A stretch of 64,000 nucleotides of DNA, from contig JBBACR010000001.1 in assembly GCA_041656875.1 (NCBI GenBank), positions 325,386-389,385 on the forward strand. The letters run 5' to 3'. A program made the translations under genes and the position numbers. This DNA is from Candidatus Pacearchaeota archaeon. GTDB taxonomy: Archaea > Nanobdellota > Nanobdellia > Pacearchaeales > GW2011-AR1. Numbering within the stretch: position 1 is the stretch's first letter; every line of letters begins with the position of its first letter. Below the pieces are notes generated by a model. That model saw only the letters and a list, made by a program, of their open reading frames with translations. It made no database searches and was not told the origin of the DNA. Below, piece after piece: positions 2,588-52,969 of this stretch.

Positions 2588-2869
2588 TTAAGCTTTTTCA
2601 AATCTCGATGAATTTAAAGAACGAATATCTTTTGAACTATCTTCAATTGCGTATACTCGTAAGTTACTTCCATCATATCCATCTGCAATAAAAATCTGTC
2701 CAATTGGGTATTTCTTAAATCCTGCAATTGCGGAACCTAACATTGTATGCTCACTTTTTTGGACTTCATTATATGCAGCATCTGTTAATTTTACTTTATC
2801 ACCTCTTTTAAAATTAGATGAATTTGATTCATTGATGAATTCTTCGATTGTAGGTATTCTTCTTTTCAT
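2588..2869 (-). CDS. RIPT-leader family protein (93 aa), start revised to internal Met
   Basis: ORF track 2588..2914; upstream gene stop at 2871; true start MKRRIPTIEEFINE matches the conserved leader. Confidence 0.55.
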   Translation of the reverse strand: MKRRIPTIEEFINESNSSNFKRGDKVKLTDAAYNEVQKSEHTMLGSAIAGFKKYPIGQIFIADGYDGSNLRVYAIEDSSKDIRSLNSSRFEKA

Positions 2870-3159: not shown

Positions 3160-3840
3160 TTATTTTGTTAAGCTTGCGTATAATGCAGCATAGTGTTCTG
3201 CTTTTTGTTTTATTTCAGCAATACGAGTTTTCATTCTGGCTTGGTCAATTTCTTGTACGCCATTGCTAATCCAATCTGTTGTTTTTGCCTTTGTTTTTGC
3301 AATTTCTTCTGTTGGCGCTTGCACAAATTCAACAGTTCCGCCATAACCCCAACCTTTATATGGGTCAGTGTATATAAATACTTCAAACCATTTATCTTTG
3401 AATGCTTCTGGCATTTTTTCATACATATAAGATTCGATATCATTCCATCCTATCCATTTGCCATTATCATATTCCAAATCAACACTTGTTCCTGCAATTC
3501 TATCAGTTGTAATAACTTTTATATCATTATTGCTATCTATATAAAATGTATATTTGCCATTAAATGAAGAAGGACCCCATTGTCTGTCTAGTGCTTTCGT
3601 GTAACTTTTCGATTGCAAAATTTCTGAAAACCATCCATGGCCTTTTGCTTCATTTGATACAAATTTTTTAATGATATCATATGTATCAGGACCAAATTTT
3701 ATAGGACTTAATCCTTTTAAAATTTTACTTAGATACTTTATAAGTGCATTATCGACATCGGTATTTCTTGCTTCATTTAATACATTAATTTTTTGATTTT
3801 CATTAATGTATTCTTCAATCGTTGGTATTCTTCTATTCAT
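3160..3840 (-). CDS. RIPT-leader family protein (226 aa)
   Basis: MNRRIPTIEEYINE leader; class B motif 8 nt upstream of ATG. Confidence 0.6.
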   Translation of the reverse strand: MNRRIPTIEEYINENQKINVLNEARNTDVDNALIKYLSKILKGLSPIKFGPDTYDIIKKFVSNEAKGHGWFSEILQSKSYTKALDRQWGPSSFNGKYTFYIDSNNDIKVITTDRIAGTSVDLEYDNGKWIGWNDIESYMYEKMPEAFKDKWFEVFIYTDPYKGWGYGGTVEFVQAPTEEIAKTKAKTTDWISNGVQEIDQARMKTRIAEIKQKAEHYAALYASLTK

Positions 3841-3847: not shown

Positions 3848-3870
3848 TTATTTTATTATATATTCACAAA
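3848..3870 (-). promoter_or_regulatory. class B motif
   Basis: gene-sense TTTGTGAATATATAATAAAATAAG. Confidence 0.45.
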
Positions 3871-10764: not shown

Positions 10765-11194
10765 TCACAATTCAACGTCAACATCTTTTTTATTACGTTC
10801 AGCATAAATTTTATGCACGATATCATAAAATGCAGCGGTAAATGTATCGTGACAAATAATTACAAGTGGTTTTGACCTGCGACCGTCTGCAATTGGAAAT
10901 TTTAACGATAAATTCATTCTTGATGAATTTTTTGCAATTGATGTTTTATCGCCATAAATTTTATGCACCCAAATTTTACCGTTTTTTTTCAGTAAATACC
11001 CATTTTACAGATTTTGTTTTGATTGTAGTATCTTCCATTTCAATAGTTGTACTGATGTTTTTCCATTTATTTGCAGGAATCAACGTTACATGCAAACCAA
11101 TTGCTTTTGCGTAGTTAAAAGCACCAGTTTCTCTAAAAAGTTCAAAATCTTTTAAATAAGATTGACGGATTTTTGGATTTTCAATTATTGTCAT
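10765..11194 (-). pseudogene. 2H phosphoesterase (LigT / 2'-5' RNA ligase-like) split by a frameshift in an A8 tract
   Basis: ORFs 10976..11194 (contains HVTL) and 10765..10968 (contains HDTF, table start is GTG) are offset by 1 nt across gaaaaaaaacgg at ~10983-10990; removing one A gives a continuous ~140-aa protein with two H-x-T-x motifs. Confidence 0.4.
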
Positions 11195-11217
11195 AAGTAG
11201 TGATTTTTAATGTTTTT

Positions 11218-11270
11218 ATCAATTAATTAAAATCAAATATACAACATTTATGATGCAATAGCAATAGTTT
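11218..11270 (-). promoter_or_regulatory. class A promoter element
   Basis: atcaattaattaaaatcaaatatacaacatttatgatgcaatagcaatagtt; minus strand = ...TATTGCTATTGC-N20-TATATTTG...; 23 nt upstream of ATG. Confidence 0.55.
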
Positions 11271-11276
11271 TGGCAA

Positions 11277-12197
11277 TTATTTTTGATAAATTTCGTGAAC
11301 TACAATTTTCATTTTTGCAATATCTTGCGAAACGATTCTTAAAGCTTCATCTCGATTATTTTTTTCAGGATACTCTCTTACGCATTCATCACCAATCCAT
11401 AACATTGCTTTATATGAACGGCTTTTCACAACGTCTTCAACCGTTACATTTAATTTCACAATATCATTTGAAACAATTACATCATCCTCAACAACTTTCG
11501 GTTGTTCATTGTTTACTGTATTAAATGATACGTCCAATGTTTTCTTTTGTTGTTCTAATCTTTGCGTTCTGAGATTTTCATCAATATCATCTTGATTAAG
11601 ACCAAGTTGTCCGTATAAACTTGCAGATTCAACCTTGACTGGGATTCCTTTATAATCAATACATGCTTTTTCATAAATATTCAAATCTTCAACATCTGGT
11701 AACAATGTATCTGAATCAAAGCCATCAACTTTTGATAAATAATACTTTATGACATGATACATATCAGGTCCAACAACGAATTTACAACGTTTATCGAAAA
11801 CATCATACATTCTTTTGTACTCTAACTTTGCAACTTCGCCTACTGTGTTTGCGATACGATATTTTAAAATGGTTTTTATAGACATATACATTCTATATCC
11901 AATTGTTGATTTTGGAAATTTGTCTTTAACTATAAACGAATAGCTATTCTCGCTTCCTTCAATCAATCGCGTACATGTTCCATTTTTATGAAACTTATAA
12001 ATAGAATATGGCAAAGTTACAATATCTCGTACTTTTATAATATAGTCATCCGAATAAGTCCATGGCATATTCAGTATGTGCGCATAAAAGCTATAAATTA
12101 ATGAACTTTTTAATATGTGTAATTCAATACTTCTATTCGTTGCTGCTTGTCTGTACAATTCTGTTCCGTATACTGTCATATTCTTAATTGTTTTCAA
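11277..12197 (-). CDS. hypothetical protein (306 aa)
   Basis: ORF track; no recognised motif. Confidence 0.45.
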   Translation of the reverse strand: MKTIKNMTVYGTELYRQAATNRSIELHILKSSLIYSFYAHILNMPWTYSDDYIIKVRDIVTLPYSIYKFHKNGTCTRLIEGSENSYSFIVKDKFPKSTIGYRMYMSIKTILKYRIANTVGEVAKLEYKRMYDVFDKRCKFVVGPDMYHVIKYYLSKVDGFDSDTLLPDVEDLNIYEKACIDYKGIPVKVESASLYGQLGLNQDDIDENLRTQRLEQQKKTLDVSFNTVNNEQPKVVEDDVIVSNDIVKLNVTVEDVVKSRSYKAMLWIGDECVREYPEKNNRDEALRIVSQDIAKMKIVVHEIYQK

Positions 12198-13916: not shown

Positions 13917-14486
13917 TTAGTTAATACTTGTTGTTAATTCAATGCCGTTTTTTGCAGATTTATTGCGAATTGTGATTAAATAATCTTTAGCAATATTATA
14001 ATCATCAGTTGCTTTTTTCAATTCGTTTTTGAACCATGCAGAAACATTTGATTTTAATTTTGTTCCTATCGGGACAATATACGTTTTGCCATCAATGATA
14101 CTTTCAAAATATAATTTATGGTCAGCAATGTTTATAAGTTTACCAGGATGCAGAATTATTCGTTTTGATGAATAATAACGAGGTGATAAATAAGTTTCAC
14201 CAATTATTGGAGTGCCAGTAATTGATTGATTTGCAACAGGTTCAGCATATGTTGATTCGTATACAGTAACAATGCCTTTTGCAATATTTTCATCTATAAA
14301 TTTGCAAGTAAAACCGTTTTCATCAACGAATTCTTTTCCTTTTGCTGAACATTTACGAACATGATATGTTTTAACACCTTTCTCGAAAATGGAATCTCGT
14401 ATTTTCATTACTTTTACGAATTTTGCAAACCTTGATATTTCTGAAATATCAAGGACTTTTCCGATTAAATTTTCACCTGTTTCCAT
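13917..14486 (-). CDS. hypothetical protein; start revised from TTG (14501) to ATG METGENL
   Basis: Table start codon is TTG lying inside the class A promoter element; first ATG at 14484-14486. Confidence 0.45.
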   Translation of the reverse strand: METGENLIGKVLDISEISRFAKFVKVMKIRDSIFEKGVKTYHVRKCSAKGKEFVDENGFTCKFIDENIAKGIVTVYESTYAEPVANQSITGTPIIGETYLSPRYYSSKRIILHPGKLINIADHKLYFESIIDGKTYIVPIGTKLKSNVSAWFKNELKKATDDYNIAKDYLITIRNKSAKNGIELTTSIN

Positions 14487-14496
14487 AAATTTGTTT

Positions 14497-14547
14497 ATCA
14501 ATTAATTAAAATCAAATATACAACATTTTTTGTGCAATAGCAATGGT
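14497..14547 (-). promoter_or_regulatory. class A promoter element
   Basis: same 50-bp consensus. Confidence 0.55.
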
Positions 14548-14560
14548 TTTCTTGATTATT

Positions 14561-14698
14561 TTATAACGAATCAACCAAATTTCTAATGTCTTCTCTATTC
14601 TTCATAGATTCGGACGGGTAAACTGGCGTAAACAAAATATGTAAAAATTGAATAAGAAGGATTGCAATAAGGCAACAACCGATAAATAAATCTTCCAT
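14561..14698 (-). CDS. small hydrophobic protein (~45 aa), approximate coordinates
   Basis: Below ORF-track cutoff; MEDLFIGCCLIAILLIQFLHILF... single TM helix. Confidence 0.25.
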   Translation of the reverse strand: MEDLFIGCCLIAILLIQFLHILFTPVYPSESMKNREDIRNLVDSL

Positions 14699-15295: not shown

Positions 15296-15483
15296 TTTTG
15301 TTTAAAGTTAGACATTATAACTGCAATTTCGGATAATGTATTAGATAACTCATTACATGTAAGATACTGATTAGCATCATTTACATATTCTAATTCGATT
15401 TCTTCTGCCTTTTCAACGTCATTAAATCCACATTTGTTAAGGTCAAAATTAAAATTCCAAATTATATCTTCTGCTGTAATCAT
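15289..15483 (-). CDS. hypothetical small acidic protein
   Basis: ORF track 64 aa; class A promoter element 12 nt upstream. Confidence 0.4.
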   Translation of the reverse strand: MITAEDIIWNFNFDLNKCGFNDVEKAEEIELEYVNDANQYLTCNELSNTLSEIAVIMSNFKQNC

Positions 15484-15494
15484 GTTTTATTTTT

Positions 15495-15543
15495 ATCAAT
15501 TAATTAAAATCAAATATACAACATTATTTAAGCAATAGCAATT
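15495..15543 (-). promoter_or_regulatory. class A promoter element (divergent with class B element for the plus-strand RIPT array)
   Basis: same consensus. Confidence 0.55.
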
Positions 15544-15556
15544 TTTTACGATACTT

Positions 15557-15589
15557 TTTTATGAATATATAAAATAAATTATTAATATT
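15557..15589 (+). promoter_or_regulatory. class B motif heading the plus-strand RIPT-leader gene array
   Basis: TTTTATGAATATATAAAATAAATTATTAATATT then ATG. Confidence 0.45.
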
Positions 15590-15829
15590 ATGGAAAGAAG
15601 AATACCAACAATTGAAGAATTTTCAGCAAAGCCAGAAGAAACTAATGAAGCTGTTGGAACTGTAGACTTACATTTCAAAGCAAAAATGTTCTGTCAAGAA
15701 GTTTTGAAATTAGGAACAAAAAATAACTTATTTGATACTTATATGAAAAGTCATCAAATAAATCCAGATGATTTAAGCGATTTCATGGTAGCAGTTATTG
15801 AAAACATTCAAACAAATTATTTAGTATAA
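15590..15829 (+). CDS. RIPT-leader family protein (79 aa)
   Basis: MERRIPTIEEF leader; class B motif immediately upstream; first gene of plus-strand array. Confidence 0.55.
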   Translation: MERRIPTIEEFSAKPEETNEAVGTVDLHFKAKMFCQEVLKLGTKNNLFDTYMKSHQINPDDLSDFMVAVIENIQTNYLV

Positions 15830-16137
15830 TGAAAAAAAGAATACCCACTTTAGATGAACACATTAATGAATCAAAATTGAATGAATTTTGCACTACTACT
15901 GTTTATAAATTCTCTGGCTCTGCTTCTCAATGGAATGAATTGCTTAAACTTTTAGATAAACTTGAGAATAAGAAAGAATTGGCATATGATTCCGAAGATT
16001 TACCGTATGGTGCACAATCATTTGCAGTATTCGATATTTTGCCAAAAAAACCTGAGACAGTTAATTGTCATATCATAGATTTAGAAACATTAATTCCAAA
16101 AGACTTAATGAAATTTATTTCACCAATATCAAAATAA
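15829..16137 (+). CDS. RIPT-leader family protein (102 aa)
   Basis: MKKRIPTLDEHINE leader; start overlaps previous stop (TAATG). Confidence 0.55.
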   Translation: MKKRIPTLDEHINESKLNEFCTTTVYKFSGSASQWNELLKLLDKLENKKELAYDSEDLPYGAQSFAVFDILPKKPETVNCHIIDLETLIPKDLMKFISPISK

Positions 16138-16145
16138 TAAGATAA

Positions 16146-17255
16146 ATGAAAAATAGAATACCTACGTTTGATGATTTTTTATTCGAAAGAACACCAGATA
16201 AAATTCCACATCCAAAACATAAATGGTTTGAAGTTAATCCAAAAGATTATGACGATTTGGAAGATGATTTTTATAAATTGATTCAAACTGCATATAAAGA
16301 TGTTCCTGGCGGTCACTTGAAAGTTCAAAAACCAGATGACGTATTTGATGCTGGATGGACTTATTGGGTTGCAATGGATAATGATAATAATCCCGATTTT
16401 AATGTTGTGAAAGGTTATAAAGTAACACCATACGGTTATAAATCAGCAGTTGCAGGTCATGATGTTACAAAGGTATCAAAAACTGATTATCTTACTAAAT
16501 TTGCTGAAGATATGAGCAAACCTGGTAAATACGCTGAGGTTTCTGAAAAACTAGCAGAAATTCTTATCAATAAATATCATGTTCATATTGTATCAAATCC
16601 CGATGCAATTAAAGCAGTACTTGGTAAAAGCGATGTTGTGTTTTATGGCAAAAATCCTGAGAATCCTTCAATGCCTGGTGATGGATGGTATACACGAAAA
16701 ATTGCAGGCGGCGTTCATGCAAAAATATTAGTAGGAAAACCTATTGTACAGGAATCTGTTACAGAAGGACTTGATAACGGTAAACCTACCGTTTTAGTTC
16801 TTCACGGATATGAATCATCAGTATATCCTCCAAGATTAAAAGTATTATCTGCAGATTATAATTTATTAACGCCTGAAATGGATTATGACCATAACCAAGG
16901 ATTGTTTGAAAAAACATACCAAACGTATAAAAATGCAAATATTGATTTAATAGTCGGTTCATCAATGGGCGGATACTTTGGATATTATTTAGCATCATTA
17001 CTTGATGTTCCTGCTTTATTATTCAATCCCGCGGTAATCGAAACAACATCAGGCATCAAAAAACAAGAAGTTCGAAAAGGCAAATATAATCCTGCAATTT
17101 ATGTTGTTTCAGGCAAAGATGATGATATCGTTATTTCATGGAAACTTAAACAATGGTTTAAGGAAAACGCAAGAAACTATGAATTTATTACTGAAAACAT
17201 GGGACATCGCCCTTCCGATGAAACTTATATAAAATATGTTAAAAAATATGTATAA
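16146..17255 (+). CDS. RIPT-leader protein with C-terminal alpha/beta hydrolase domain
   Basis: MKNRIPTFDDFLFE leader; LVLHGYESS ... VGSSMGG (GxSxG nucleophile elbow) ... D ... H. Confidence 0.6.
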   Translation: MKNRIPTFDDFLFERTPDKIPHPKHKWFEVNPKDYDDLEDDFYKLIQTAYKDVPGGHLKVQKPDDVFDAGWTYWVAMDNDNNPDFNVVKGYKVTPYGYKSAVAGHDVTKVSKTDYLTKFAEDMSKPGKYAEVSEKLAEILINKYHVHIVSNPDAIKAVLGKSDVVFYGKNPENPSMPGDGWYTRKIAGGVHAKILVGKPIVQESVTEGLDNGKPTVLVLHGYESSVYPPRLKVLSADYNLLTPEMDYDHNQGLFEKTYQTYKNANIDLIVGSSMGGYFGYYLASLLDVPALLFNPAVIETTSGIKKQEVRKGKYNPAIYVVSGKDDDIVISWKLKQWFKENARNYEFITENMGHRPSDETYIKYVKKYV

Positions 17256-17607
17256 AAGAATACCAACATTTGATGAACATGTAAATGAAGGCACATGGAA
17301 TAATGAAAAATATGGTTTCAGAATATCGAAATTTTTAGAACAGCATACAGGTAAAAACCTAACAGGCGAAATGAAAGTTCAAATTATTTTTAACGATTTT
17401 TTCAAAGCAAGTACTTATGAATATGCTAATAATTTATTATTGTGTTCAAGAATCGAAGGTTACATTAAATCGTATAAAATTCTTGAACATGATAGATTGA
17501 TAGGCAGTTACAGAAATATATTTATTGTAGATGTTGATGTAATTAAATGGTACGAATTTTTACGCAAACTAGATGATGGTCATTTAGATAACTTTAAAAT
17601 ATTATAA
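17248..17607 (+). CDS. RIPT-leader family protein, start revised to MYKRIPTFDEHVNE
   Basis: ORF track starts 17236; conserved leader begins at second Met. Confidence 0.5.
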   Translation: MYKRIPTFDEHVNEGTWNNEKYGFRISKFLEQHTGKNLTGEMKVQIIFNDFFKASTYEYANNLLLCSRIEGYIKSYKILEHDRLIGSYRNIFIVDVDVIKWYEFLRKLDDGHLDNFKIL

Positions 17608-17610
17608 GAA

Positions 17611-17883
17611 ATGAAAAAGAGAATACCAACATTTGATGAACATGTAAACGAAGGCATATTGCAAAGTTTTATTGATTTGTTCAAGAAAAAACCTGATGTA
17701 AGTACATGGACGCCACCAGAATTTAAAATTGAAGCAACATTAAAAAAGATTTTAACTGACGATGGCTGGACAAACTTAGGACGTGATGAAGAAGGCCGAC
17801 TAATCGGAAACAATACAAAGTACGGCGGTAATGGATTAGATGTTATCGAAACAATGCGTGATGAAAAAAAATTAAACTTCTAA
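17611..17883 (+). CDS. RIPT-leader family protein (90 aa)
   Basis: MKKRIPTFDEHVNE leader. Confidence 0.55.
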   Translation: MKKRIPTFDEHVNEGILQSFIDLFKKKPDVSTWTPPEFKIEATLKKILTDDGWTNLGRDEEGRLIGNNTKYGGNGLDVIETMRDEKKLNF

Positions 17884-17884
17884 T

Positions 17885-18658
17885 ATGAAAACCAGAATTC
17901 CATCTTTTGATGATTTCTTATTTGAATCTAATGATAGAATCATTACATTATATCATGGGACGGCTTCTGGGAAATTATCATCTATAAAGCTTAACGGACT
18001 TGATACTAATGCAGAAACAAATCAAAAAACGCATGGCTTTAATACAAGTAATCAAATTTCATTAAGCTTTAATTATTCTGATGCATATTATTATGGTTCA
18101 TTATTTGTTAAAACAAACGAACCAGTTACTGTTTTGATAATTAAACTTCCGTATTCGTATATAGCAGGAAAAGGGCTTTCGTTAAACGAAGTTCTTGTTA
18201 AACAAAATATATCATCAAAATACATAATAGGTGCATATAAAGACAAAGATATCGTAAAATTAGATAAATTGTCAACAAATGAAACATATGTAAATCCTGA
18301 TATGCTATCAACAAGTGATTTGCAACATTATAAGTCGCATTATAAAATTAACGAATCAATTGATGCCTTAGAAAAGATGGGGATCCAAGCAGATCCTGAC
18401 AAACCTTCAATATTCTTATATACGATATATCGTACGCCAAGTTCCGATGAAATTAAGGAATTTGAAAATTATCCGCAACTTACAGCTGATGAAATATTGA
18501 ACGGTTTTTGTTATACATGCATTGGCAGAGGAATTACGTCAAGTAGAAATATTGCATTAATAAAAGATAGCATAAATATGCTTATTGCTGCATACCCAGA
18601 TGATCCTCGATATACTGAAGCATTAAGAATAAGCGATGAATTAAAACCTAAATTTTAA
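17885..18658 (+). CDS. RIPT-leader protein with Tpt1/KptA- or PARP-like (H-Y-E class) ADP-ribosyltransferase-fold domain
   Basis: MKTRIPSFDDFLFE leader, then ITLYHGTASGKLSSIKLNGL (compare E. coli KptA FLYHGTASRFLDEIKKQGL, recalled from memory) and YSDAYYYGSLF (Y-x-Y segment); lacks the Tpt1 N-terminal R-H-R-R lobe. Confidence 0.4.
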   Translation: MKTRIPSFDDFLFESNDRIITLYHGTASGKLSSIKLNGLDTNAETNQKTHGFNTSNQISLSFNYSDAYYYGSLFVKTNEPVTVLIIKLPYSYIAGKGLSLNEVLVKQNISSKYIIGAYKDKDIVKLDKLSTNETYVNPDMLSTSDLQHYKSHYKINESIDALEKMGIQADPDKPSIFLYTIYRTPSSDEIKEFENYPQLTADEILNGFCYTCIGRGITSSRNIALIKDSINMLIAAYPDDPRYTEALRISDELKPKF

Positions 18659-18861
18659 AACATTACTTCATAAATTGTTTTACCTTTTTCTGTAATTTCC
18701 CATTCGTTTTTCTCATTGCATACAGCAAGTCCTAAATGAACCATTTTTTGCAATGCTAAAATTATATCTTCTTCAGAAATATTTTCAATAATCGGAAGCT
18801 CATGAAAGATTTTTTCTTTTATGAGCTTCGTGTATATTATGCTTACTTGTTTATCATTCAT
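18655..18861 (-). CDS. hypothetical small protein
   Basis: ORF track 68 aa; convergent overlap with 17885..18658. Confidence 0.35.
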   Translation of the reverse strand: MNDKQVSIIYTKLIKEKIFHELPIIENISEEDIILALQKMVHLGLAVCNEKNEWEITEKGKTIYEVMF

Positions 18862-19625
18862 ATTAATTGTCCTTTCTTATTAAATACCATGTATCTAAAT
18901 TTTATGCCCGATTTTAGTACAGCAGCCATTTTTAACGCATTTATATCTTCATTTTTTTGAAATGTCCATTCTGATTTAACTTCAATTATAGTATGCAAAG
19001 ACTTGATATAAATATCTGGCACATATAAATGCTTTTTTTCATTACACACATAAAAAATATTGCCAAGTTCTTTGCGTATAGCTTTTCCTCCTATTATTAT
19101 ATCTTCTTCATTATAAGATAACAGCAATAATAAAATTGCTTTATTTTCGTATCCTTGCGTTTTCACAACAGCGCCTGACGGCAATATGAATTTATGCCAT
19201 TTATATCGACCTCCGTAATTCAAAGCATCTGCCCTTTTTATTTTGTTCTCCTCTATACTATTGTATAATAATAATTTTTGTGATAAATTCTCTCGCCATT
19301 TTGCGTTATGTGATACAGCTTTCATAGATTCTGAAACGCGTGCACGAAGTTCATGAGTCCATCTATTTGGATCCTTAAGATGTATTTCCATTTTTTCTTT
19401 GTACATTGGATCTTCATATTTTTTTTTCATACTGCAATTTCGCGAACACGCAACTCTCCTATATGGCGTAAACATTTTACCGCATATCGGGCAAGCAATA
19501 TCTTGCAATTTATTTTTTTGTATTCTTGCTTTGCCAATGCAAGAACGGGAACAAAATTGTGCACTTTTTTTATTTGTTTTGAATTCTTTGTTACATACCG
19601 AACAATTTTTAATATATGTTGTCAT
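18858..19625 (-). CDS. putative homing endonuclease: N-terminal Zn ribbon plus C-terminal PD-(D/E)xK domain
   Basis: CSVCNKEF...CSRSC, CPICGK...CSRNC; C-term YVPDIYIKSLHTIIEVKSEWTF (PD...E-V-K); paralog of 38948..39850. Confidence 0.5.
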   Translation of the reverse strand: MTTYIKNCSVCNKEFKTNKKSAQFCSRSCIGKARIQKNKLQDIACPICGKMFTPYRRVACSRNCSMKKKYEDPMYKEKMEIHLKDPNRWTHELRARVSESMKAVSHNAKWRENLSQKLLLYNSIEENKIKRADALNYGGRYKWHKFILPSGAVVKTQGYENKAILLLLLSYNEEDIIIGGKAIRKELGNIFYVCNEKKHLYVPDIYIKSLHTIIEVKSEWTFQKNEDINALKMAAVLKSGIKFRYMVFNKKGQLI

Positions 19626-19673
19626 GATTTTTATTTATATATTAAAAGATACGCATTGTTATTTTGAAGTTAT

Positions 19674-21410
19674 TTAAAATCTTACATATACACATCTATC
19701 TAAAAAATCTTGAGGAAACATATGTCTATTCTGCGTAATTAGCCTGAAAAAATCGCTATCTAGAATATACGTTGTTGCGTAATCGTTTTCATTCCTAACT
19801 GAACGACCAACACCCTGTAAGACCGACAGTATTGTAATCCATGCGTACCAATCTTTATCTGTCTTCATTTTCGCATTTACGAATTTGTCCATGAGCGATG
19901 GGTAAGGAACTTTTGCAAATATTTGAAACCGGGACTTATCATTTCCTAAATCTAATCCTTCTAATAGACTGGGACCCATTAGAACTTTATTGTTTGCACT
20001 GCTAAAATCAAATAAAACATTTTTTTTATCTGAACTATTTATGTATGAAATAATTCTATCACTTTTTATGTTTTCATTCAAGTATACACTATTTGTGTAA
20101 CTTCCGGTGTGAATGATTCCATTCTCATTTTTGTGTTTTTCTAAAATTTCTGTTATTTTATTTGCAATTTTTGGCAAAGCAACTTCTTTATTTTTAAACG
20201 ACATGCTTACACCTTGATAAATTAATATTGGCGAACGGTCAAAATTGAATGTACTAGGTATTTTTCTATACTTTGCATTGTTTGCATTTATACTTTTTGC
20301 AAACAGCGTAGGTTCACCCATCGTTGCTGTCATCATGACAGCAAAGTTATTTTTGTCATGAAAATGTTTTTTCATGAGGTATTTTTCATTGATGCAATTA
20401 AACTGTATATTTGCACCGTTTTGGTTTTTAATCATTGCTCTAATATCAGTTGACGCAATAATTTGATTATAATCTTCAAATTTACAATGTAGATCTTTGC
20501 ATTCATCGCACAAGTTTAATCCTTTTCTCCATTCTGCTGGAACTGATTTGCCAGCATATTTTCTTCCTACGAATTTTTTTATTTCATCGGCGTGTTGAAC
20601 AAACGAATGAAGCATTTTCTCAAACATTCTGTTATGAATAAACAATTTTGCATTATCGTCTTCAGCAACAATTTTATTTATGATTTCTTTCAATTCATAT
20701 CCGCTATACGGAACTGCCATTGAATGTTCAGCAAGGAATCCTCGTAAACGTTCAAGCATAGGATATGTATTATCATTTACAATAGGACTAAAGTGTTTTT
20801 GTACAATGTTAACAACTTTATGCGCCTCATCGCATATAATAAAATCACGTTCATCAAATAACGCATGAGACGAATCCGTCATTTTTTCCAATACGTAATT
20901 CATTTGTATCAAATAATACGAATAGTTGAATATTGATGTTGGAGTAAAACTTGCGTAATCTCTTGCAAAATAATAAGGGCAGTCCTTATAACATGGTAGT
21001 TGTTTTGTTGCATTTGAATTTAAGTGCTTCATTTTACATTCACCAAGACTATGTTTTTCTTGGTTTTCTGTACAAAGATAATTATCAACACCTTTTACAC
21101 TTCCAAATCCTAAATGCAATTTCAATACGTCTTGTTCGTATTGGTCTTGTAATGCAAGATCTGATGATAGAATATATCCTTTTTTGCCGAATCTGTTTAA
21201 TACATATGAGGAGCATAATGCAATTAATGATTTACCGCTACCTGTTGGTGCGTCGATAAGATATATCTTTTTTTCTTCACCCATGCATGTTGCAACAACA
21301 TCAATAATTGCTTCTTTTTGACCTGTCCTGAACTCGAAATTTGTCCACCCATGATTTTTAACGAACATGTCAATATATTCGTTTATTTTATCTTCAAGTT
21401 CTTGATTCAT
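19674..21410 (-). CDS. DinG/XPD (Rad3)-family DEAH helicase with Fe-S Cys cluster
   Basis: Walker A IDAPTGSGKSL; motif II IICDEAHKV; four Cys CTEN..C..C..C between motifs I and II. Confidence 0.75.
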   Translation of the reverse strand: MNQELEDKINEYIDMFVKNHGWTNFEFRTGQKEAIIDVVATCMGEEKKIYLIDAPTGSGKSLIALCSSYVLNRFGKKGYILSSDLALQDQYEQDVLKLHLGFGSVKGVDNYLCTENQEKHSLGECKMKHLNSNATKQLPCYKDCPYYFARDYASFTPTSIFNYSYYLIQMNYVLEKMTDSSHALFDERDFIICDEAHKVVNIVQKHFSPIVNDNTYPMLERLRGFLAEHSMAVPYSGYELKEIINKIVAEDDNAKLFIHNRMFEKMLHSFVQHADEIKKFVGRKYAGKSVPAEWRKGLNLCDECKDLHCKFEDYNQIIASTDIRAMIKNQNGANIQFNCINEKYLMKKHFHDKNNFAVMMTATMGEPTLFAKSINANNAKYRKIPSTFNFDRSPILIYQGVSMSFKNKEVALPKIANKITEILEKHKNENGIIHTGSYTNSVYLNENIKSDRIISYINSSDKKNVLFDFSSANNKVLMGPSLLEGLDLGNDKSRFQIFAKVPYPSLMDKFVNAKMKTDKDWYAWITILSVLQGVGRSVRNENDYATTYILDSDFFRLITQNRHMFPQDFLDRCVYVRF

Positions 21411-21426
21411 TATTTATCTAATCTTT

Positions 21427-21455
21427 TTATGTAATATATAATTATATACATAAAG
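21427..21455. promoter_or_regulatory. near-palindromic class B element in divergent region (helicase <- -> 21471)
   Basis: tatgtaatatataattatatacataaag reads as class B motif on both strands. Confidence 0.4.
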
Positions 21456-21470
21456 TAAAAAAAGTTTATC

Positions 21471-21911
21471 ATGAATCAACGAATACCTACGTTTGACAAT
21501 TTCCTGTTTGAAGCAGGAATAAAATATGAACCTGGTTCGATTAGCGAACTATTAGCAGGACTGCGCGGTAACCAAGAGTTTTATGATTTTTGCAAAAAAC
21601 ATGGACATCCAAATCCACAAGCCTGGAATCCTATGGAATTTACGATGAGTTCTTGTACATTCGTTGCAAAATTTTTAGAGGAAAAAGGATTTGGTAAAGC
21701 ATTATCAAGTCACGGTCCATACGGCATGGCACCACATGCTTTTGTTTTGTATAACGGATTATATTATGATTATGAAGCAAGAGAAGGCGTTAAGAATGTT
21801 TATGACTTGCCAAACTTTCAAGATTTACGATACAATGTTAAAAAAGGTGATTCCTGGCCAAATTACAAAAAAGAAATAGTCAAAAACGTACAAAATTTTA
21901 ATTTTCAATAA
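21471..21911 (+). CDS. RIPT-leader family protein (146 aa)
   Basis: MNQRIPTFDNFLFE leader; near-palindromic class B element upstream. Confidence 0.55.
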   Translation: MNQRIPTFDNFLFEAGIKYEPGSISELLAGLRGNQEFYDFCKKHGHPNPQAWNPMEFTMSSCTFVAKFLEEKGFGKALSSHGPYGMAPHAFVLYNGLYYDYEAREGVKNVYDLPNFQDLRYNVKKGDSWPNYKKEIVKNVQNFNFQ

Positions 21912-22825
21912 TGAAGCTACGAATACCAAATTTTGATGATTTTATATTTGAATCTAATTATGAATGGATTCCAATGACCGTTGCATCTGCTAAAATTGTT
22001 GCTGATGGCATGATAAAATTGTTTGCGCCAAATAGTGATGAAATTGCAAAAAACAAAAAAATTGCCGAACTTGTATTAGCTGCGCTAGAAAAGCATATTG
22101 AACGTATGAAGTATTTCGATAAATTTCCCGACTTCAAGAAATTGATTGAGGATAACGTAAAACATATAATTGCAAATGATAAACGTCATGGCATCGAACC
22201 TGAAGACCCAAACATGGTTAAGGCATATGCAATGGAATATGCAATGGAAACAATTTACGAAAGAACAAAGGGCCAAGAATCACAAGAAGAAAAAGACAAG
22301 AAAACACAAGTTACATTTTTCAATAAAGTTTTTAATGAAGGCGCGGCATTACGCACAAAAGCAATTACAAATGCTGGTTTGAAATTTTACAAACAGAACT
22401 TGTTTGCATTTGAGGAAATAAACAGAAAATTACGAACAGATCATTCAAAAATGAGTGAGCATGATTGGTCAGTTGCAACTGATGTAGGAAATGCAATTGA
22501 CTTATTTAAAACATCAAAAGAAGTAACGGTTTTCCGTATTATTGATTCTGAAGATTTTCCATTTTCATTAAGCAAAGGAAAAAAGTTTACAGAAAAAGGA
22601 ATACTGTCAACATCATTTGACATTAATTATCTTTTAGAAAACAAAGAAAATTTTGAATCACCAGTTATATTGCAAATAGTAGTTCCGTCTGGCACTACAT
22701 ATTACAGATTTCCGAATGATTTTGAATCAGAAGTAGTTTTTGATTGTGATCATGAGATTATAATAACTGATAATTCATACGAATATTTAGACACACCAAT
22801 CATAAAATGCAAAATTATAAAGTAA
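21911..22825 (+). CDS. RIPT-leader protein with C-terminal R-S-E mono-ADP-ribosyltransferase domain (T4 Alt/Mod-like)
   Basis: MKLRIPNFDDFIFE leader; VTVFRII (Arg), GILSTSFD (STS), NDFESEVVF (ExE) with canonical spacing. Confidence 0.55.
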   Translation: MKLRIPNFDDFIFESNYEWIPMTVASAKIVADGMIKLFAPNSDEIAKNKKIAELVLAALEKHIERMKYFDKFPDFKKLIEDNVKHIIANDKRHGIEPEDPNMVKAYAMEYAMETIYERTKGQESQEEKDKKTQVTFFNKVFNEGAALRTKAITNAGLKFYKQNLFAFEEINRKLRTDHSKMSEHDWSVATDVGNAIDLFKTSKEVTVFRIIDSEDFPFSLSKGKKFTEKGILSTSFDINYLLENKENFESPVILQIVVPSGTTYYRFPNDFESEVVFDCDHEIIITDNSYEYLDTPIIKCKIIK

Positions 22826-22827
22826 CA

Positions 22828-23202
22828 ATGAATCAACGAATACCAAATTTTGATGATTTTGTTAATGAAGCAAAATCTGTTCCTAGAGAAAATACAGAAC
22901 GTGAAACTGTATTAGATTACATTATCAAAAACAAACAAGTCCGTTTAGAAAAGCTCAAGGAAATTAAAGCGCCTGAAATTATCATCACAGGAACTGAGAA
23001 CCAAATACATTTATTAAAATCAGGTCAATCAAAAATTAAAGGACTTGACATTTACGGTTCTAATATTTATAAAACGTTGGAATGGAGAAAAGGCAATGGT
23101 GGAGTTGATTTCATACAATTTGTAATGAATGATGATTCAGTTATAAATTATTTTCCAAATGCAAAATACGGAGCATTTTTCGCACCTAATACTAAAAAAT
23201 AA
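22828..23202 (+). CDS. RIPT-leader family protein, start revised to MNQRIPNFDDFVNE
   Basis: ORF track 22807 start; leader begins at third Met. Confidence 0.5.
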   Translation: MNQRIPNFDDFVNEAKSVPRENTERETVLDYIIKNKQVRLEKLKEIKAPEIIITGTENQIHLLKSGQSKIKGLDIYGSNIYKTLEWRKGNGGVDFIQFVMNDDSVINYFPNAKYGAFFAPNTKK

Positions 23203-23522
23203 TGGAAAGCTTATATATCATAACAGACGGAGAAAAATACAAAATAGGTTATAGCAAAGACGTGGCTAATCGTAAGAGACAACTACAGACAGCAAACGGA
23301 TCTTTACTGGATATTGTATTTGAATTTGAAACGGTTCATGGAATGAAATTAGAAAGATCCATTCAACGGTCAATGAAACATAAAAACATTATCGGCGAAT
23401 GGTTTGATTTAGAAAAAGAAGATATTGCAAAAATAAAAGAACTTTGTATTTTGCAAGAAAAAAACTTTAACATCATAAAGAAAAATGAAACAGAGAATTC
23501 CTACGTTAGAGGACTTTATTAA
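23202..23522 (+). CDS. T5orf172 (GIY-YIG-related) domain protein
   Basis: YKIGYSKDVANRKRQLQT ... IIGEWFDL matches T5orf172 KIG.T...RRL..L and GEWF signature. Confidence 0.65.
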   Translation: MESLYIITDGEKYKIGYSKDVANRKRQLQTANGSLLDIVFEFETVHGMKLERSIQRSMKHKNIIGEWFDLEKEDIAKIKELCILQEKNFNIIKKNETENSYVRGLY

Positions 23523-23940
23523 TGAATCGTCGAATGAAATTTTCACTAGTTCTGACATTATAGATTTGCAAAAAAATGGTGCAAGACCAGACGACACTTG
23601 GCAATCAATAAAATCATCGGCAAAATTTCAAAAAATAGATAATGTTAGTATTTCAAAAATTAATTGGTCAGAAAAAAATGTTGATATTTTAAAGAAACAA
23701 GAACGCAGATTAAACCGATTATTCGATGAAGATGATGGCACACAATACTATAAAGATGCCATTAAAAGAGAACAGTCAGAATTACAGCATATACAAAATC
23801 TTATTCAAATGGTAAAAAGCAATAAAAAATTAAATCCGATTGTTGTAGATTCAAATTATAGATTGCTTGATGGTTTTCATAGAATAGGTGCATATCAAAT
23901 TGCAGGTAAAAAAACTATTGACATATTTAAAGAAATTTGA
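23485..23940 (+). CDS. RIPT-leader protein with ParB-like nuclease domain
   Basis: MKQRIPTLEDFINE leader; C-term LLDGFHRIGAY (DGxHR ParB motif). Confidence 0.55.
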   Translation: MKQRIPTLEDFINESSNEIFTSSDIIDLQKNGARPDDTWQSIKSSAKFQKIDNVSISKINWSEKNVDILKKQERRLNRLFDEDDGTQYYKDAIKREQSELQHIQNLIQMVKSNKKLNPIVVDSNYRLLDGFHRIGAYQIAGKKTIDIFKEI

Positions 23941-23994
23941 TAATTTTTAAATTTATACTGCATGTGCCATTACAAAGAAAAATATACATACACA

Positions 23995-24741
23995 ATGAAA
24001 AACAGAATACCAGCATTTGATGACTTCATAGTTGAACGAGAATTTCCATTTACAGATACATCATTTGTTACACGGATTCTTACTAAATTAAAATCTCAAA
24101 TTTTAGAAAAAAATTTAGGAAACCTTGAAGTTGAAACAATTTTAAATAAAGCATTTAGAAGTTTTTTAGTTTCTTTTGAAAGTAACAGTGGACAATCTGC
24201 ATTTGATGATATGACTAGAGTCGGACTGATTCAATCACGAATTGACCAAGACGGCAACATAATTGTTGATTATGCAGATTATTTTTATGAAACATTTGAA
24301 GACGAAGAATTATATGATGAATTTGGAACAGTTCTTGCAAGAATTCTTGCGCATGAAAGAACGCATGCAGGCCAATTAGATAAAATACGAATGGGAAGAA
24401 ATTCTTATGACTTTTACAACATTTTAGGAAAAATAGGTAAAGACCCATCAAACCGTTTTAAATATTTGTCAAGCAAACAAGAAATGATGGCATTTGCGGT
24501 TGAATGCGTAGAAGAATTCAGAGGAATGGGATATTCCGATTCTGATATTTTACGTAAAATTAAAACACCGTTTAAAGACTATCAAGAATCCAATATTTTC
24601 TATTTATACATTGACTATTTCGATTATAGAGGTCATGTATTCGATAACGACGAAAAGGAAAGAAAAAAATGCAAAGACGTAATTGACGGATTCTTAAAAT
24701 ATATGTATCAATATATAACAAAACCGAAATCTTTAGAATAA
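23995..24741 (+). CDS. RIPT-leader protein with HExxH zinc-metallopeptidase motif
   Basis: Start revised to MKNRIPAFDDFIVE; LARILAHERTHAGQ = HExxH. Confidence 0.4.
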   Translation: MKNRIPAFDDFIVEREFPFTDTSFVTRILTKLKSQILEKNLGNLEVETILNKAFRSFLVSFESNSGQSAFDDMTRVGLIQSRIDQDGNIIVDYADYFYETFEDEELYDEFGTVLARILAHERTHAGQLDKIRMGRNSYDFYNILGKIGKDPSNRFKYLSSKQEMMAFAVECVEEFRGMGYSDSDILRKIKTPFKDYQESNIFYLYIDYFDYRGHVFDNDEKERKKCKDVIDGFLKYMYQYITKPKSLE

Positions 24742-25205
24742 TGCAATTTAAACAACTATTAAATATGAATGAAGCAAAACAAATTTGGAACAAAAAAGTG
24801 TTCCTAGGTGGCACATGTAATGAATCTAAATGGCGTGATGAATTAATCAAAAAACTTAAGATTGACTATTTCAATCCAGTTGTTCCAGATTGGACCGAAG
24901 AATGCTATCAAGAAGAATTAAGACAACGGGAATCATGCGATTTTTGTTTGTACGTTATTACACCAAAAATGACAGGCAGTTATTCAATTGCTGAAGTAGT
25001 TGACGATTCAAATAAACGTCCAGAAAAAACTGTTTTTTGTTTTGTTTCAACAGATGAAGATAAAGAATTCGATAAAGCACAAAACAAAAGTTTGGATAAA
25101 GTTGGCGTAATGGTTGCATCTAATGGCGGTACTTATTTGAAATCATTAGATGAAGTTGCAAACTTTTTAAACATGGAATATTACATAGAGAATAATGAAA
25201 AATAG
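24741..25205 (+). CDS. nucleoside 2-deoxyribosyltransferase-like Rossmann protein
   Basis: VFLGGTCNESKWRDELIKKL...YFNPV resembles NDT/YtoQ-like fold; weak. Confidence 0.3.
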   Translation: MQFKQLLNMNEAKQIWNKKVFLGGTCNESKWRDELIKKLKIDYFNPVVPDWTEECYQEELRQRESCDFCLYVITPKMTGSYSIAEVVDDSNKRPEKTVFCFVSTDEDKEFDKAQNKSLDKVGVMVASNGGTYLKSLDEVANFLNMEYYIENNEK

Positions 25206-26205
25206 AATACCTACATTTGAATCATTTGAATTTAATGATTGCACACAATTATTTGAATTATCGAATAATAGTACTTTATATCATCATTCAATGGCAAAAT
25301 TTAAAGTAGGTGATGTAATTACTTCACAGAAAAATGGTGATGGCGTTCATTGGCTTGCAAATGATCCAATGGAAATTGGATTAGAATTTTTCAGAAAAAA
25401 ACATTATCCTGATAGACCTTCACGTTTCGATTGCGTATATTCAAGCATAATCCCAAGAACGCGATTTTCAGACAAAGGATATTTATATGTAGTGCAACCA
25501 GTTGGAAGTCTTTTTATGACAGATTCAATGATTATTGATAGCTTAGGCGATGAATTTATGAGAGAACGAATGACCCCGTATTATGAAACATTAACTATTA
25601 ATGATTTCAAAAAAAATCCAGAGGAAGCTGAAAGAATTCTTTCTTATTATTCTGCAAAAAGATATTGGGATGGCGTTAAATCGCTGCCTAGGGAAAGATG
25701 GGGCGATATTGAAGTATTATCAAATTCCGCAATTGTGACACAGGTAATTGAAGATTCAGGAACAGTATTACGTCCAGGAATGGATGTTGTGGTTACGGAA
25801 GATAACATTATAGATGTGACAATGACTATTTATAATCAGCACCCGAAAGAAAATGATACTCAATTATTCGATAATGAACAAATTGCAACAATGTTAAGTT
25901 ATATTGAAAAACATATCATAAACGGCAAATTTGAACAGCAATCTTATAATAAAAATGTCTATGATATTCGCGGGTATTTAAGAAAAGATGCAAAACTTAA
26001 AACTACATTTATACGTACAAATTTAGCAAAAAATGTGCATACGTATGATACCGTAAAAGGAAAGTATAGTTTAATAACATTCGATTTATACATCGATGGC
26101 CATTTATTCAAACGTGCAAATGAAGCACCGCTTTTCAGACTTGAAACAGCAATGTATTTGAAAAATAAAGCTTATGATATTGGTATGTATCTAAAGAAAG
26201 TTTAG
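25195..26205 (+). CDS. RIPT-leader family protein (336 aa)
   Basis: MKNRIPTFESFEFN leader. Confidence 0.55.
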   Translation: MKNRIPTFESFEFNDCTQLFELSNNSTLYHHSMAKFKVGDVITSQKNGDGVHWLANDPMEIGLEFFRKKHYPDRPSRFDCVYSSIIPRTRFSDKGYLYVVQPVGSLFMTDSMIIDSLGDEFMRERMTPYYETLTINDFKKNPEEAERILSYYSAKRYWDGVKSLPRERWGDIEVLSNSAIVTQVIEDSGTVLRPGMDVVVTEDNIIDVTMTIYNQHPKENDTQLFDNEQIATMLSYIEKHIINGKFEQQSYNKNVYDIRGYLRKDAKLKTTFIRTNLAKNVHTYDTVKGKYSLITFDLYIDGHLFKRANEAPLFRLETAMYLKNKAYDIGMYLKKV

Positions 26206-30663: not shown

Positions 30664-30801
30664 TTAAGCAAAAATCCACATTGAAACAAAAAATAAACCA
30701 AAAAAACCAAGAATGATTACAAATCCTTTAATTGCTTCAGCTTTTTCATTTGTAGGATTTACAACAATTTCAGATAATTTAGTGTCAGTATAATTTTCCA
30801 T
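30664..30801 (-). CDS. small tail-anchored membrane protein (~45 aa), first gene after a class A promoter
   Basis: Below cutoff; MENYTDTKLSEIVVNPTNEKAEAIKGFVIILGFFGLFFVSMWIFA; ATG 14 nt downstream of promoter element. Confidence 0.35.
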   Translation of the reverse strand: MENYTDTKLSEIVVNPTNEKAEAIKGFVIILGFFGLFFVSMWIFA

Positions 30802-30815
30802 AGCGATTTGTTTTT

Positions 30816-30867
30816 ATCAATTAATTAAAATCAAATATACAACATTTATGAAGCAATAGCAATAGTT
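30816..30867 (-). promoter_or_regulatory. class A promoter element
   Basis: same consensus; followed by small membrane protein ORF. Confidence 0.55.
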
Positions 30868-51722: not shown

Positions 51723-52364
51723 TTATTTGTTATATTTCTTACCGCTGAATACATCGGATTTGATGACATAGTTTACTAATTTTTGAGATCCCATGTCAAA
51801 TAAGTTATTTGTTGAAACAATAAAACACCAATCAGAATACATTTTTATAACAAATACATCCTTTGCAACTTCGTTTACTTTGCCGCCATCATGCGACAAT
51901 TTCTTTAACGCTAATTTAGGACTATCTGCAGATACTGTTGTTGAACCGTAGTTATTGCCTCTATTTGCTAATGCGCTTTCAATTGCTCCTTTGATTGTTT
52001 CTTTACCGACGCCGCCCATGCTAACACTTATGACATAATATTCTGTTCCGTATTCGATAAGACCCCACTTATTTAATTGTTTTGCAATTGCTGGATATTT
52101 TTCTGGCGTAAATAAATCAAAGTGTGATTCAAAGTCAGAAATTTCTACATCACTATAATGTTCTTGATTAGGATTTGCATACGTTAAGTATACATACTGT
52201 TTTTTTGGAGAATATTGTGCAGCTTTCTTTATATACGGTTCTCCCTTTAAAAACCTTCCTATGTCACCATTCAAATTACTTGTGCATATATAAATTTCTA
52301 ATGGCTTTTTAGCAGCTTCATTAACAAATTCAAAGCTATCAAATGTAGGTATTCTGTTTTTCAT
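51723..52364 (-). CDS. RIPT-leader family protein (213 aa)
   Basis: MKNRIPTFDSFEFVNE leader. Confidence 0.55.
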   Translation of the reverse strand: MKNRIPTFDSFEFVNEAAKKPLEIYICTSNLNGDIGRFLKGEPYIKKAAQYSPKKQYVYLTYANPNQEHYSDVEISDFESHFDLFTPEKYPAIAKQLNKWGLIEYGTEYYVISVSMGGVGKETIKGAIESALANRGNNYGSTTVSADSPKLALKKLSHDGGKVNEVAKDVFVIKMYSDWCFIVSTNNLFDMGSQKLVNYVIKSDVFSGKKYNK

Positions 52365-52366: not shown

Positions 52367-52939
52367 TTACTTTTTCTTTTTATTGCATTCGTATAAATTT
52401 GATGTAATTTGTGGTGGCAATTGCTCAAATTTCATATCAGCATATTTTTCACAATCATCAGGATCTTCGCACGCGCCAGATACTGCTTCACATCTATCAT
52501 CAAAACTCATTTTATCCCATGTTTGTTTTGTAATAAGAACTTGTTTGCCTTCATTTGTTTTGATTTCATCATACAGTTCTTTCAACTTCTTACCGCCAAA
52601 TTTGCTTATAAGATTTTTAAATTCGTCTTTGAATCTTTTTTCAAATTCCGCAAAAGTATCGCATTCATCAGCTAATGCATAAACGTCAGAAAGATCTGAT
52701 TCGTTTACAAAACTTTCATTTGTTTCGCTTTGAACTCTGTTATACAACTCGTGCAATTTCACACCTTTAAAATTACGAACAAATTGTTTAAAATCTACGT
52801 TAAATCTTTTGTCGAATTCTTCAAATGTATCACATTCTTTTGCTAACGATTCTATATCAGATAGTATGTCAGATATTTCTTTTTCATTAACTTTTGATTC
52901 GTTGATGTATTCATCGAGTGTAGGTATTCTTCTTTCCAT
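52367..52939 (-). CDS. RIPT-leader family protein with internal duplicated ~45-aa module
   Basis: MERRIPTLDEYINE leader; ECDTFEEFDKRF... repeated as ECDTFAEFEKRF...; class B motif upstream. Confidence 0.55.
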   Translation of the reverse strand: MERRIPTLDEYINESKVNEKEISDILSDIESLAKECDTFEEFDKRFNVDFKQFVRNFKGVKLHELYNRVQSETNESFVNESDLSDVYALADECDTFAEFEKRFKDEFKNLISKFGGKKLKELYDEIKTNEGKQVLITKQTWDKMSFDDRCEAVSGACEDPDDCEKYADMKFEQLPPQITSNLYECNKKKK

Positions 52940-52948: not shown

Positions 52949-52969
52949 TTTATTTTATATATTCCAATT
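52949..52969 (-). promoter_or_regulatory. class B motif
   Basis: gene-sense TTGGAATATATAAAATAAAGTAC. Confidence 0.4.

Follow-up and report, generated by a model that had tools for sequence, protein, structure and literature searches.

The closest described counterpart of the element treated here is the capsid-targeting sequence (CTS), a concept established for the T-even phages, where a short N-terminal propeptide, removed in T4 by the prohead protease gp21, is carried by otherwise unrelated proteins. In phage T4 (NC_000866) the internal proteins (IPs) IPII and IPIII start with MKTYQEFIAE followed by A, IPI with MKTFKEFTS...ITE followed by A, and Alt with MELITELFDE. Positions 4 and 7 of the T4 CTS govern targeting and positions 8 and 10 processing, and the IPs and Alt are ejected (PMC9026906, which reviews the work of Mullaney and Black); the internal proteins of the T-even phages at large are diverse and defence-related and have only the CTS as a common feature (PMC3012670). 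Here we describe a 14-residue N-terminal leader on sixteen proteins encoded in a 64-kb stretch of megaphage DNA, hereafter the window (contig JBBACR010000001.1, positions 325,386 to 389,385), which resembles the T4 CTS but is a longer tag, belongs to a distant lineage, goes together with a scaffold-fused protease in related phages and occurs in roughly an order of magnitude more copies. The giant phages phiKZ, 201phi2-1 and SPN3US likewise have many head-internal proteins, whose maturation depends on a gp21-related protease with cleavage after Glu. Their propeptides are also thought to target proteins into the prohead, but they are mostly 80-130+ residues long and cut at S/A/G-x-E or A-x-E (PMC5694885). 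The leader does not belong with these long propeptides, since it is a shared short tag of 14 amino acids (aa) with I, L, V or F rather than a small residue at P3, that is [ILVF]-x-E as in T4.

Sixteen open reading frames (ORFs) of the window begin with M-x-x-R-I-P-[TSNA]-[FLI]-[DE]. In a six-frame scan of the window for R[IVL]P, the string RIP[TSNA][FLI][DE] occurred 16 times, in every case at residue 4 of an ORF that begins with ATG and in no case within a protein. A degenerate leader pattern at the DNA level matched 10 times, as compared with 0.00 expected from 100 dinucleotide shuffles. This bears out the sixteen leader genes listed by an earlier, sequence-only reading of this DNA. Four of these genes have an additional in-frame ATG upstream, the conserved ATG being that of the leader. 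Downstream of residues 1-14 there is no similarity among the 16 proteins, and their Pfam and PHROG matches are diverse or absent. The hydrophobic-x-Glu end that had been claimed for the leader is present as [ILVF]-x-E ending at residue 14 in 13 of the 16, whereas in the remaining three an x-x-E comes 2-8 residues later, namely TNE at residues 18-20 (gene at 15590), LFE at 20-22 (25195) and VNE at 14-16 (52364). When the sequence MKxRIPTFDEFINE, followed by S, is laid against the T4 CTS, leader residues F8, F11, I12 and E14 correspond to T4 Y4, F7, I8 and E10. Both peptides are thus short N-terminal propeptides on unrelated proteins with an aromatic-x-x-F-I-x-E core and a hydrophobic-x-Glu end, and the leader differs by its 14 residues with an extra R-I-P-x segment. 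An AlphaFold2 model of the protein encoded at 17885-18658 has a helix at leader residues 8-16 (predicted local distance difference test, pLDDT, 60-67).

The leader genes form four operon-like groups, at 15590-18658 and 21471-26205 on the plus strand and at 3840-2588 and 52939-51723 on the minus strand, and both plus-strand groups are islands in an otherwise almost wholly minus-strand window. This recalls the T-even IP locus with its variable, defence-related internal proteins sharing only the CTS (Repoila et al. 1994; PMC3012670), but that locus holds few genes per coliphage, whereas here operon-sized arrays are found in uncultivated megaphages. T4, moreover, has only about four such leaders in its entire genome, as compared with sixteen within 64 kb here and about 15 consecutive ones in a relative.

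A 44-aa leader profile gave only 18 candidates and 4 matches, and degenerate DNA patterns were therefore used to gauge how widely the leader occurs. These retrieved it from 8 stretches on 6 IMG/VR contigs (24-218 kb) and from 37 metagenome DNA stretches, about 5 of which represent an unrelated high-GC family (GC, guanine plus cytosine), and together with the window this amounts to about 75 distinct leader proteins of 48-380 aa. The motif is conserved in phages of 27-33% GC with diverged cargo. Among 50,697 phage records there was no cultured relative with the leader, a tblastn search of phage records with a 20-aa consensus leader gave chance matches only, and the first 50 kb of Tenacibaculum phage PTm1 contain no member of the leader family. 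One ORF in a relative (L045 2091-2885, 264 aa) carries a second full leader (MKRRIPTIDES) in mid-protein and a third leader-like stretch at its C-terminus, and appears to have arisen by read-through or fusion of leader genes in tandem.

In several relatives the leader is found together with genes for head maturation, the contigs with the leader, a gp21-family protease with a putative scaffold and a gp23-type capsid protein being L005/L020, L021, L022, L026 and L071. L005 and L020 derive from IMG/VR contig 3300014205_000673, and JGI sample 3300014205 also holds contigs identical to the window. In L005 the leader ORFs MERRIPTIEEYSVNE (70 aa) and MERRIPSLDEFINE (132 aa) lie directly upstream of a gene for a 683-aa protein (3985-6036) with an N-terminal Peptidase_S77 domain, the family of T4 gp21 (44.8 bits against a cut-off of 27; phmmer against T4 gp21, 5.5e-7), and this gene is followed by one for a Gp23-type capsid protein (126 bits). 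Leader ORFs likewise lie directly upstream of the protease gene in L021 and L022, whose proteases are 69-72% identical to that of L005 by BLASTP. In L026, a 160-kb contig of 27% GC with a protease 44% identical, some 15 consecutive leader-variant genes directly precede the protease and capsid genes; these variants, among them MKQRISNLETYLNE, MKIPLFEDFINE, MSRIKSFEEFINE and MKQRILTFEQFITESKLNE, show that R-I-P can be absent while [FL]-[DE]-x-[FY]-[IL]-x-E is kept. A gp21-family protease, a scaffold and a gp23-type capsid protein, as in T4, are thus present in related phages, the difference being that here protease and scaffold would be joined in one protein of about 680 aa, for the repeat-rich tail of about 500 aa in the L005 protease is read as a putative scaffold. 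In the protein database 1,294 proteins are related to this fusion.

The sites in this fusion protein match the end of the leader. In an alignment of 27 homologs, [ILVFM]-x-E is found at many conserved columns, including INES just behind the protease domain (21 of 27) as well as VNE and a C-terminal LNES (both 27 of 27). The putative scaffold tail contains about 8 repeats of a unit of about 14 residues, ..[IL]-A-E-D-H-N.., each of which holds a potential cleavage site, and the repeat units would by analogy be cut to short peptides like T4 gp22. The L005 capsid protein starts with MKLLNE and has HALNE followed by SS 48 residues before the segment that aligns to T4 gp23 residues 93-131. In T4 gp23 the cleavage site, LTE followed by A, is 28 residues before that segment.

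A motif of the form AATATATAA(A/T)ATAAA precedes the first gene of all four leader clusters of the window as well as the protease gene and a leader gene of L005 and a gp25-like baseplate gene of L026. In cluster 1 it is seen as the promoter-like motif AATATATAAAATAAA at 15564..15578 (+), 17 nt before the ATG, while AATATATAA is found at 21433..21441 (+), 29 nt before the ATG of cluster 2, and at 3856..3864 (-) and 52955..52963 (-), each 15 nt before the ATG at 3840 and 52939, respectively. The T4 late promoter is TATAAATA, which the motif resembles, and AATATATAA may represent a phage-specific middle or late promoter; this motif, and the lack before leader genes of the sigma-A-like element described below, only suggest co-expression of the leader genes with the head genes.

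Because leader genes adjoin protease and capsid genes in relatives, because the leader agrees with the T4 CTS at each of the functional positions and because the cleavage sites agree, we consider the 14-residue leader a probable propeptide of the T4 CTS type, which would direct proteins to the capsid (prohead core) and be removed by a gp21-family protease. The sequence-only reading had proposed such a propeptide, and the modularity of tag and cargo described below lends this further support. From the genomic context, the AATATATAA promoters would drive the leader genes together with the head genes, and the predicted-helical segment F-[DE]-[DE]-[FY]-[ILV]-x-E would dock on a scaffold core built from the coiled-coil tail of the fusion protein while the gp23-type shell closes round the docked cargo. 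Peptidase_S77 would then cut after the Glu of [ILV]-x-E and free the mature cargo in the head, and the same protease would chop the scaffold at its [IL]-[AG]-E repeats and trim the capsid protein after L-N-E. By analogy with T4, the freed proteins, among them the ADP-ribosyltransferase (ART)-fold enzymes, the hydrolase, the ParB-like protein and the Acb1-like 2H phosphoesterase of relatives, would finally be ejected with the DNA and act before phage gene expression. If the tag alone suffices, any gene that gains it becomes cargo, and this would explain why the tagged proteins are unrelated and mostly orphans. We infer that the proteins dock, are cut after Glu14, stay in the head, are ejected and act as effectors, and while the T4 system is experimentally established, the present one is known from sequence alone.

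Several observations weigh against this interpretation. The prohead protease that the sequence-only reading had called for is found, as an S77 protease, in related contigs, but the 64-kb window and its flanks of about 10 kb contain neither protease, scaffold or capsid genes nor any tail gene. A protease could likewise not be shown on the 425-kb contig to which the window belongs, a contig profile scan leading to five unrelated contigs of metagenome-assembled genomes (MAGs) and none of the 120 protease clusters listed being on a contig of this length, and L005 may derive from a closely related phage and not from this one. The samples that yielded the nearest protease clusters (P0001-P0003) are not those in which the window proteins occur. 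No leader array lies beside the protease in LR756500.1, the complete genome whose helicase is closest; two of its ORFs (L003 1776 and 21930) start with MNELVPKYEDYIFEE and MKFIKDYISFLNEG, which are CTS-like but of a different flavour, and this suggests that CTS-like tags are widespread in huge Bacteroidota phages. The T4 IPs are furthermore uniformly basic, whereas the isoelectric point (pI) of the mature cargo ranges from 4.6 to 9.4. Finally, AATATATAA does not imply late timing, as it is also found before homing-endonuclease-like and other genes, namely those at 1471(-), 4611(-), 19625(-), 24741(+), 37073(+), 41623(-), 43686(-), 45914(-) and 54863(-); the genes preceded by the motif include several that are homing-endonuclease-like (NUMOD3, T4-Seg-like GIY-YIG N-terminus) or strain-variable (DUF7487) as well as DUF1848 and DprA-like ones.

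The cargo was for the most part refractory to annotation, and only a handful of the 61 leader proteins scanned match any Pfam family and few match PHROGs. Cluster 1 starts with genes at 15590..15829 (+; 79 aa, MERRIPTIEEFSAKPEETNE) and 15829..16137 (+; 102 aa, MKKRIPTLDEHINE followed by SKLNE), the start of the latter overlapping the stop of the former. The next gene, 16146..17255 (+), encodes 369 aa with a C-terminal alpha/beta hydrolase domain, as had been claimed, the match to UPF0227 being above cut-off at 30.8 bits. No cargo function is assigned to the products of 17248..17607 (+; 119 aa, MYKRIPTFDEHVNE followed by G) and 17611..17883 (+; 90 aa, MKKRIPTFDEHVNE followed by G). The last gene, 17885..18658 (+), encodes a 257-aa protein with an N-domain (residues ~16-150) and a C-domain (~170-257), and the N-domain had been taken for a Tpt1/PARP-like fold of the H-Y-E type. 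This notion is in good agreement with the invariance of H24, Y64 and E102 in 10 homologs, with a PDB profile search that retrieved DarT (3.7e-4), Tpt1 (5e-3) and also PARP, and with an AlphaFold2 model (pLDDT 85.7) for which the top 18 Foldseek matches are Tpt1/KptA proteins (E from 2.8e-4), followed by other ARTs, and an ART fold of the H-Y-E class, similar to Tpt1/KptA and DarT, is accordingly supported for this putative enzyme. PDB searches with the sequences of the two ART candidates alone returned nothing. The C-domain (window 18400-18658), of about 85 aa and with the pattern PSIF.YT.YR.P...E...F...P.L.A..I..GF.YT.IGRG, occurs in 152 representative proteins of many architectures and up to 1,405 aa. 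Homologs of the ART domain in other phages carry the CTS-like leaders MSYVKTYESFLNE, MKYIPSFAEFINE or MKTFRQLLEG, or no leader, and the C-terminal module is also found behind a canonical leader on a different N-domain. Since the two domains thus occur with other leaders, with none or with another N-domain, tag and cargo appear to be separable modules.

Cluster 2 begins with 21471..21911 (+; 146 aa, no assigned cargo function), which is followed by 21911..22825 (+), encoding an orphan of 304 aa with C-terminal R / S-T-S / E-x-E motifs. The claim that the latter is an R-S-E ADP-ribosyltransferase stands in so far as the motifs VFRII, LSTSF and ESEVVF are visible, but the match to ADPrib_exo_Tox is sub-threshold (17.5 bits, cut-off 23.4); no homologs of this protein were found, and its single-sequence AlphaFold2 model (pLDDT 41) is unusable. 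The product of 22828..23202 (+; 124 aa, MNQRIPNFDDFVNE followed by A) has a basic mature part with a pI of 9.4. That of 23485..23940 (+; 151 aa), which had been called a ParB nuclease, has a weakly ParB-N-like C-terminus with a DGFHR motif (PHROG 1e-4), but the Pfam match is under cut-off. The supposed metallopeptidase of 23995..24741 (+; 248 aa) does have an HExxH motif (AHERTH), kept as HEYVH in the sole homolog seen (L047). The cluster ends with 25195..26205 (+; 336 aa), which has the variant leader end MKNRIPTFESFEFNDCTQLFE. On the minus strand, cluster 3 consists of 3160..3840 (226 aa, MNRRIPTIEEYINE followed by NQKINVLNE and then A), its first gene, and 2588..2869 (93 aa, MKRRIPTIEEFINE followed by S), and cluster 4 of 52367..52939 (190 aa, MERRIPTLDEYINE followed by SKVNE and then K), likewise the first gene, and 51723..52364 (213 aa, MKNRIPTFDSFEFVNE followed by A). 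Among the leader proteins of relatives, one is Acb1-like, resembling the 2H phosphoesterase Acb1 (33.2 bits, above cut-off), an enzyme acting against the cyclic-oligonucleotide-based antiphage signalling system (CBASS), and another is LicD-like. A hypervariable, mostly orphan cargo set is what would be expected for arms-race effectors, and diverse, fast-evolving cargo is common to this system and T4, as is a protein with an ADP-ribosyltransferase fold, the counterpart of the ART-fold cargo being Alt.

The window also encodes an ADP-ribosylglycohydrolase without leader (9633-10445, -; 101.8 bits), which together with the two tagged ART-like proteins may form a writer-eraser pair or serve in self-protection.

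Of the four alternatives that we considered, each fits the data less well than a T4-type propeptide. The one nearest to it holds that the leader does target the prohead core and is cleaved off, but that the cargo is not a set of injected effectors and would either serve in assembly, as core fillers, DNA-condensing or scaffold-accessory proteins, or be degraded or retained in the head. The leader proteins adjacent to the protease in L005, L021, L022 and L026 are indeed small (35-130 aa) and take the position of T4 core genes 67/68, and most of the cargo is without a recognisable enzymatic domain; on the other hand, the ART fold, the alpha/beta hydrolase and the Acb1-like and LicD-like proteins of relatives have no obvious role in assembly, the hypervariability and orphan nature of the cargo speak against such a role, and so does the ejection of the T4 IPs and Alt (PMC9026906), and we therefore find this alternative unlikely. 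A partner outside the capsid, be it a phage chaperone, a modifying enzyme or an intracellular compartment, is still less probable as the docking site, even though a short N-terminal peptide on unrelated proteins would in principle fit any shared partner and the linkage between leader and protease could be obtained for relatives only. Such a partner would not account for the clustering of leader genes with protease and capsid genes in four related contigs, for the match to the T4 CTS at its functional positions, or for the agreement of the terminal [ILV]-x-E with conserved sites of the protease-scaffold protein.

The notion that the leader is conserved at the level of nucleic acid, either as a translation enhancer for a host that does not use Shine-Dalgarno pairing or as a recombination cassette that shuffles genes, has some observations in its favour. 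Codons 2-3 are A-rich, and codons 4-5 (e.g. window 15599-15604) are AGA in 13/16 and ATA in 14/16 leaders as compared with 49% and 32% in the genome (p = 0.01 and 7e-6, respectively), a bias that recurs in 58 leaders from related contigs, where Ile12 uses ATT, ATA and ATC evenly. The neighbouring genes at 17248 and 17611 moreover have near-identical leader DNA, and in T-even phages the DNA that encodes the CTS has been suggested to be where shuffling takes place (Repoila et al. 1994, as related in PMC3012670). The earlier claim that codons vary synonymously among the copies nonetheless stands for codons 6-14, where the residues are fixed and Pro, for example, is CCA in 8, CCT in 7 and CCC in 1, and falls only for codons 4-5, and the variation at codons 6-14 supports selection on the leader peptide. 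All genes need translation, yet only about 14% of those in the window have the leader, and the motif persists across phages of different GC and with diverged cargo. An effect at this level could furthermore coexist with a function of the peptide and not replace it; the data suggest an extra A-rich RNA-level bias beside the start codon, added to peptide selection and not an alternative to it, and conservation of the nucleic acid as the sole explanation is very improbable. Hardly credible at all is a degron or secretion signal. The leader is short and N-terminal and the window does encode a protein sorted by the type IX secretion system (T9SS), but the leader is charged, acidic and hydrophilic and has no hydrophobic stretch that could serve as the h-region of a Sec or Tat signal; T9SS signals are C-terminal, and the only Por_Secre_tail domain of the window is found on a protein without leader. 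There is likewise no tie to host proteases, whereas a phage protease of matching specificity is encoded beside leader genes.

The window has a GC of 31% and about 114 genes according to a rough gene call. A 732-aa protein encoded at 7341-9539 (-) contains LRR_5, several BACON domains and the C-terminal T9SS sorting domain Por_Secre_tail, and because of these domains a Bacteroidota host is indicated, whose type IX secretion system the phage appears to exploit by way of this protein. The helicase at 19674-21410 is closest to that of the huge uncultured phage LR756500.1 (462 kb; 43% identity), followed at about 30-35% by those of the Lak phages, Tenacibaculum PTm1, Chryseobacterium MA9V-2 and PAU. 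Proteins identical to those of the window are present in landfill, digester and other metagenomes and in one case on a contig of 425,361 bp, the protein of 21911-22825 (P0125) being the same as 'MAG: hypothetical protein WC979_02580 [Candidatus Pacearchaeota archaeon]' at NCBI. The window is thus part of an uncultivated Bacteroidota megaphage with a longest known contig of 425 kb and a genome of at least that size, a host and a size that set it apart from T4, and in the binning its contig was assigned to an archaeal MAG. Two window pieces of 10-12 kb had no megablast match in the 50,697 phage records, and an exact 50-mer from the window end is absent from IMG/VR.

No tRNA genes were found in the window. 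An HD + AAA_33 (polynucleotide-kinase-like) protein (45957-47105, -) adjoins an RNA ligase with an HNH-like N-terminus (47109-48302, -), and the two genes look like a T4-style tRNA repair pair. Strains differ at window 10447-10761, where one (L014 1-966) has a DUF7487 gene in place of the 104-aa ORF of the window, and DUF7487 genes are also found 3' of the capsid protein gene in L022 and L071, which suggests that DUF7487 is a mobile, possibly endonuclease-like, element.

A second class of putative promoters is distinct in its distribution. An intergenic element of about 60 nt, ..CTATTGCTATTGC..AATGTTGTATATTTGATTTTAA.., occurs in 12 copies upstream of minus-strand genes, within 9523-9652, 11183-11312, 14463-14591, 15460-15589, 30780-30911, 32453-32581, 49247-49373, 50266-50395, 51558-51687, 61247-61377, 61855-61984 and 63612-63738 (all -). 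It contains TATATTTG, which fits the -7 box of Bacteroidota sigma-A, TAnnTTTG, and the elements are probably promoters for the host polymerase and hence early; none precedes any of the 16 leader genes. The element recalls, by analogy, the promoter-stem-loop cassettes of T4-like phages. It is 86-98% identical in L020, L009 and L007, and was rejected as proof that the window and L020 are of the same genome, since it is nearly as similar in L009. One copy lies upstream of a gene for a 541-aa PPDK_N / PEP-utilizers protein (30867-32492, -; PHROG 'kinase', E 2.9e-126).

Full-text searches retrieved no description of the leader or of CTS arrays in Bacteroidota megaphages, although absence from the library searched does not prove novelty. 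If the leader is what we propose, it provides a label, readable from sequence, for the injected protein set of an uncultivated megaphage lineage, and dozens of orphan genes, including those for the ART-fold and Acb1-like proteins, become ranked candidates for anti-defence or host-takeover functions. The capsid-targeting principle of T4, already in use as a protein-delivery tool, would then extend to a distant phage group, the rule of aromatic-x-x-F-I-x-E plus cleavage would be old and portable, and room for a protein arsenal would be one reason for huge capsids. A bolder notion, which we advance tentatively and regard as quite possible though on balance not the likelier outcome, is that the tag and the T4 CTS are anciently homologous, being shared by T4-like phages and Bacteroidota megaphages, and that the latter pre-load their capsids with dozens of enzymes for host takeover and anti-defence, including ADP-ribosyltransferases, an Acb1-like cyclic-nucleotide phosphodiesterase, hydrolases and ParB-like proteins beside many orphans. 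Should that be so, the ejected proteins of uncultivated phages would be readable from their genomes by a search for the tag, and much of host takeover and anti-defence would be delivered as protein alongside the DNA.

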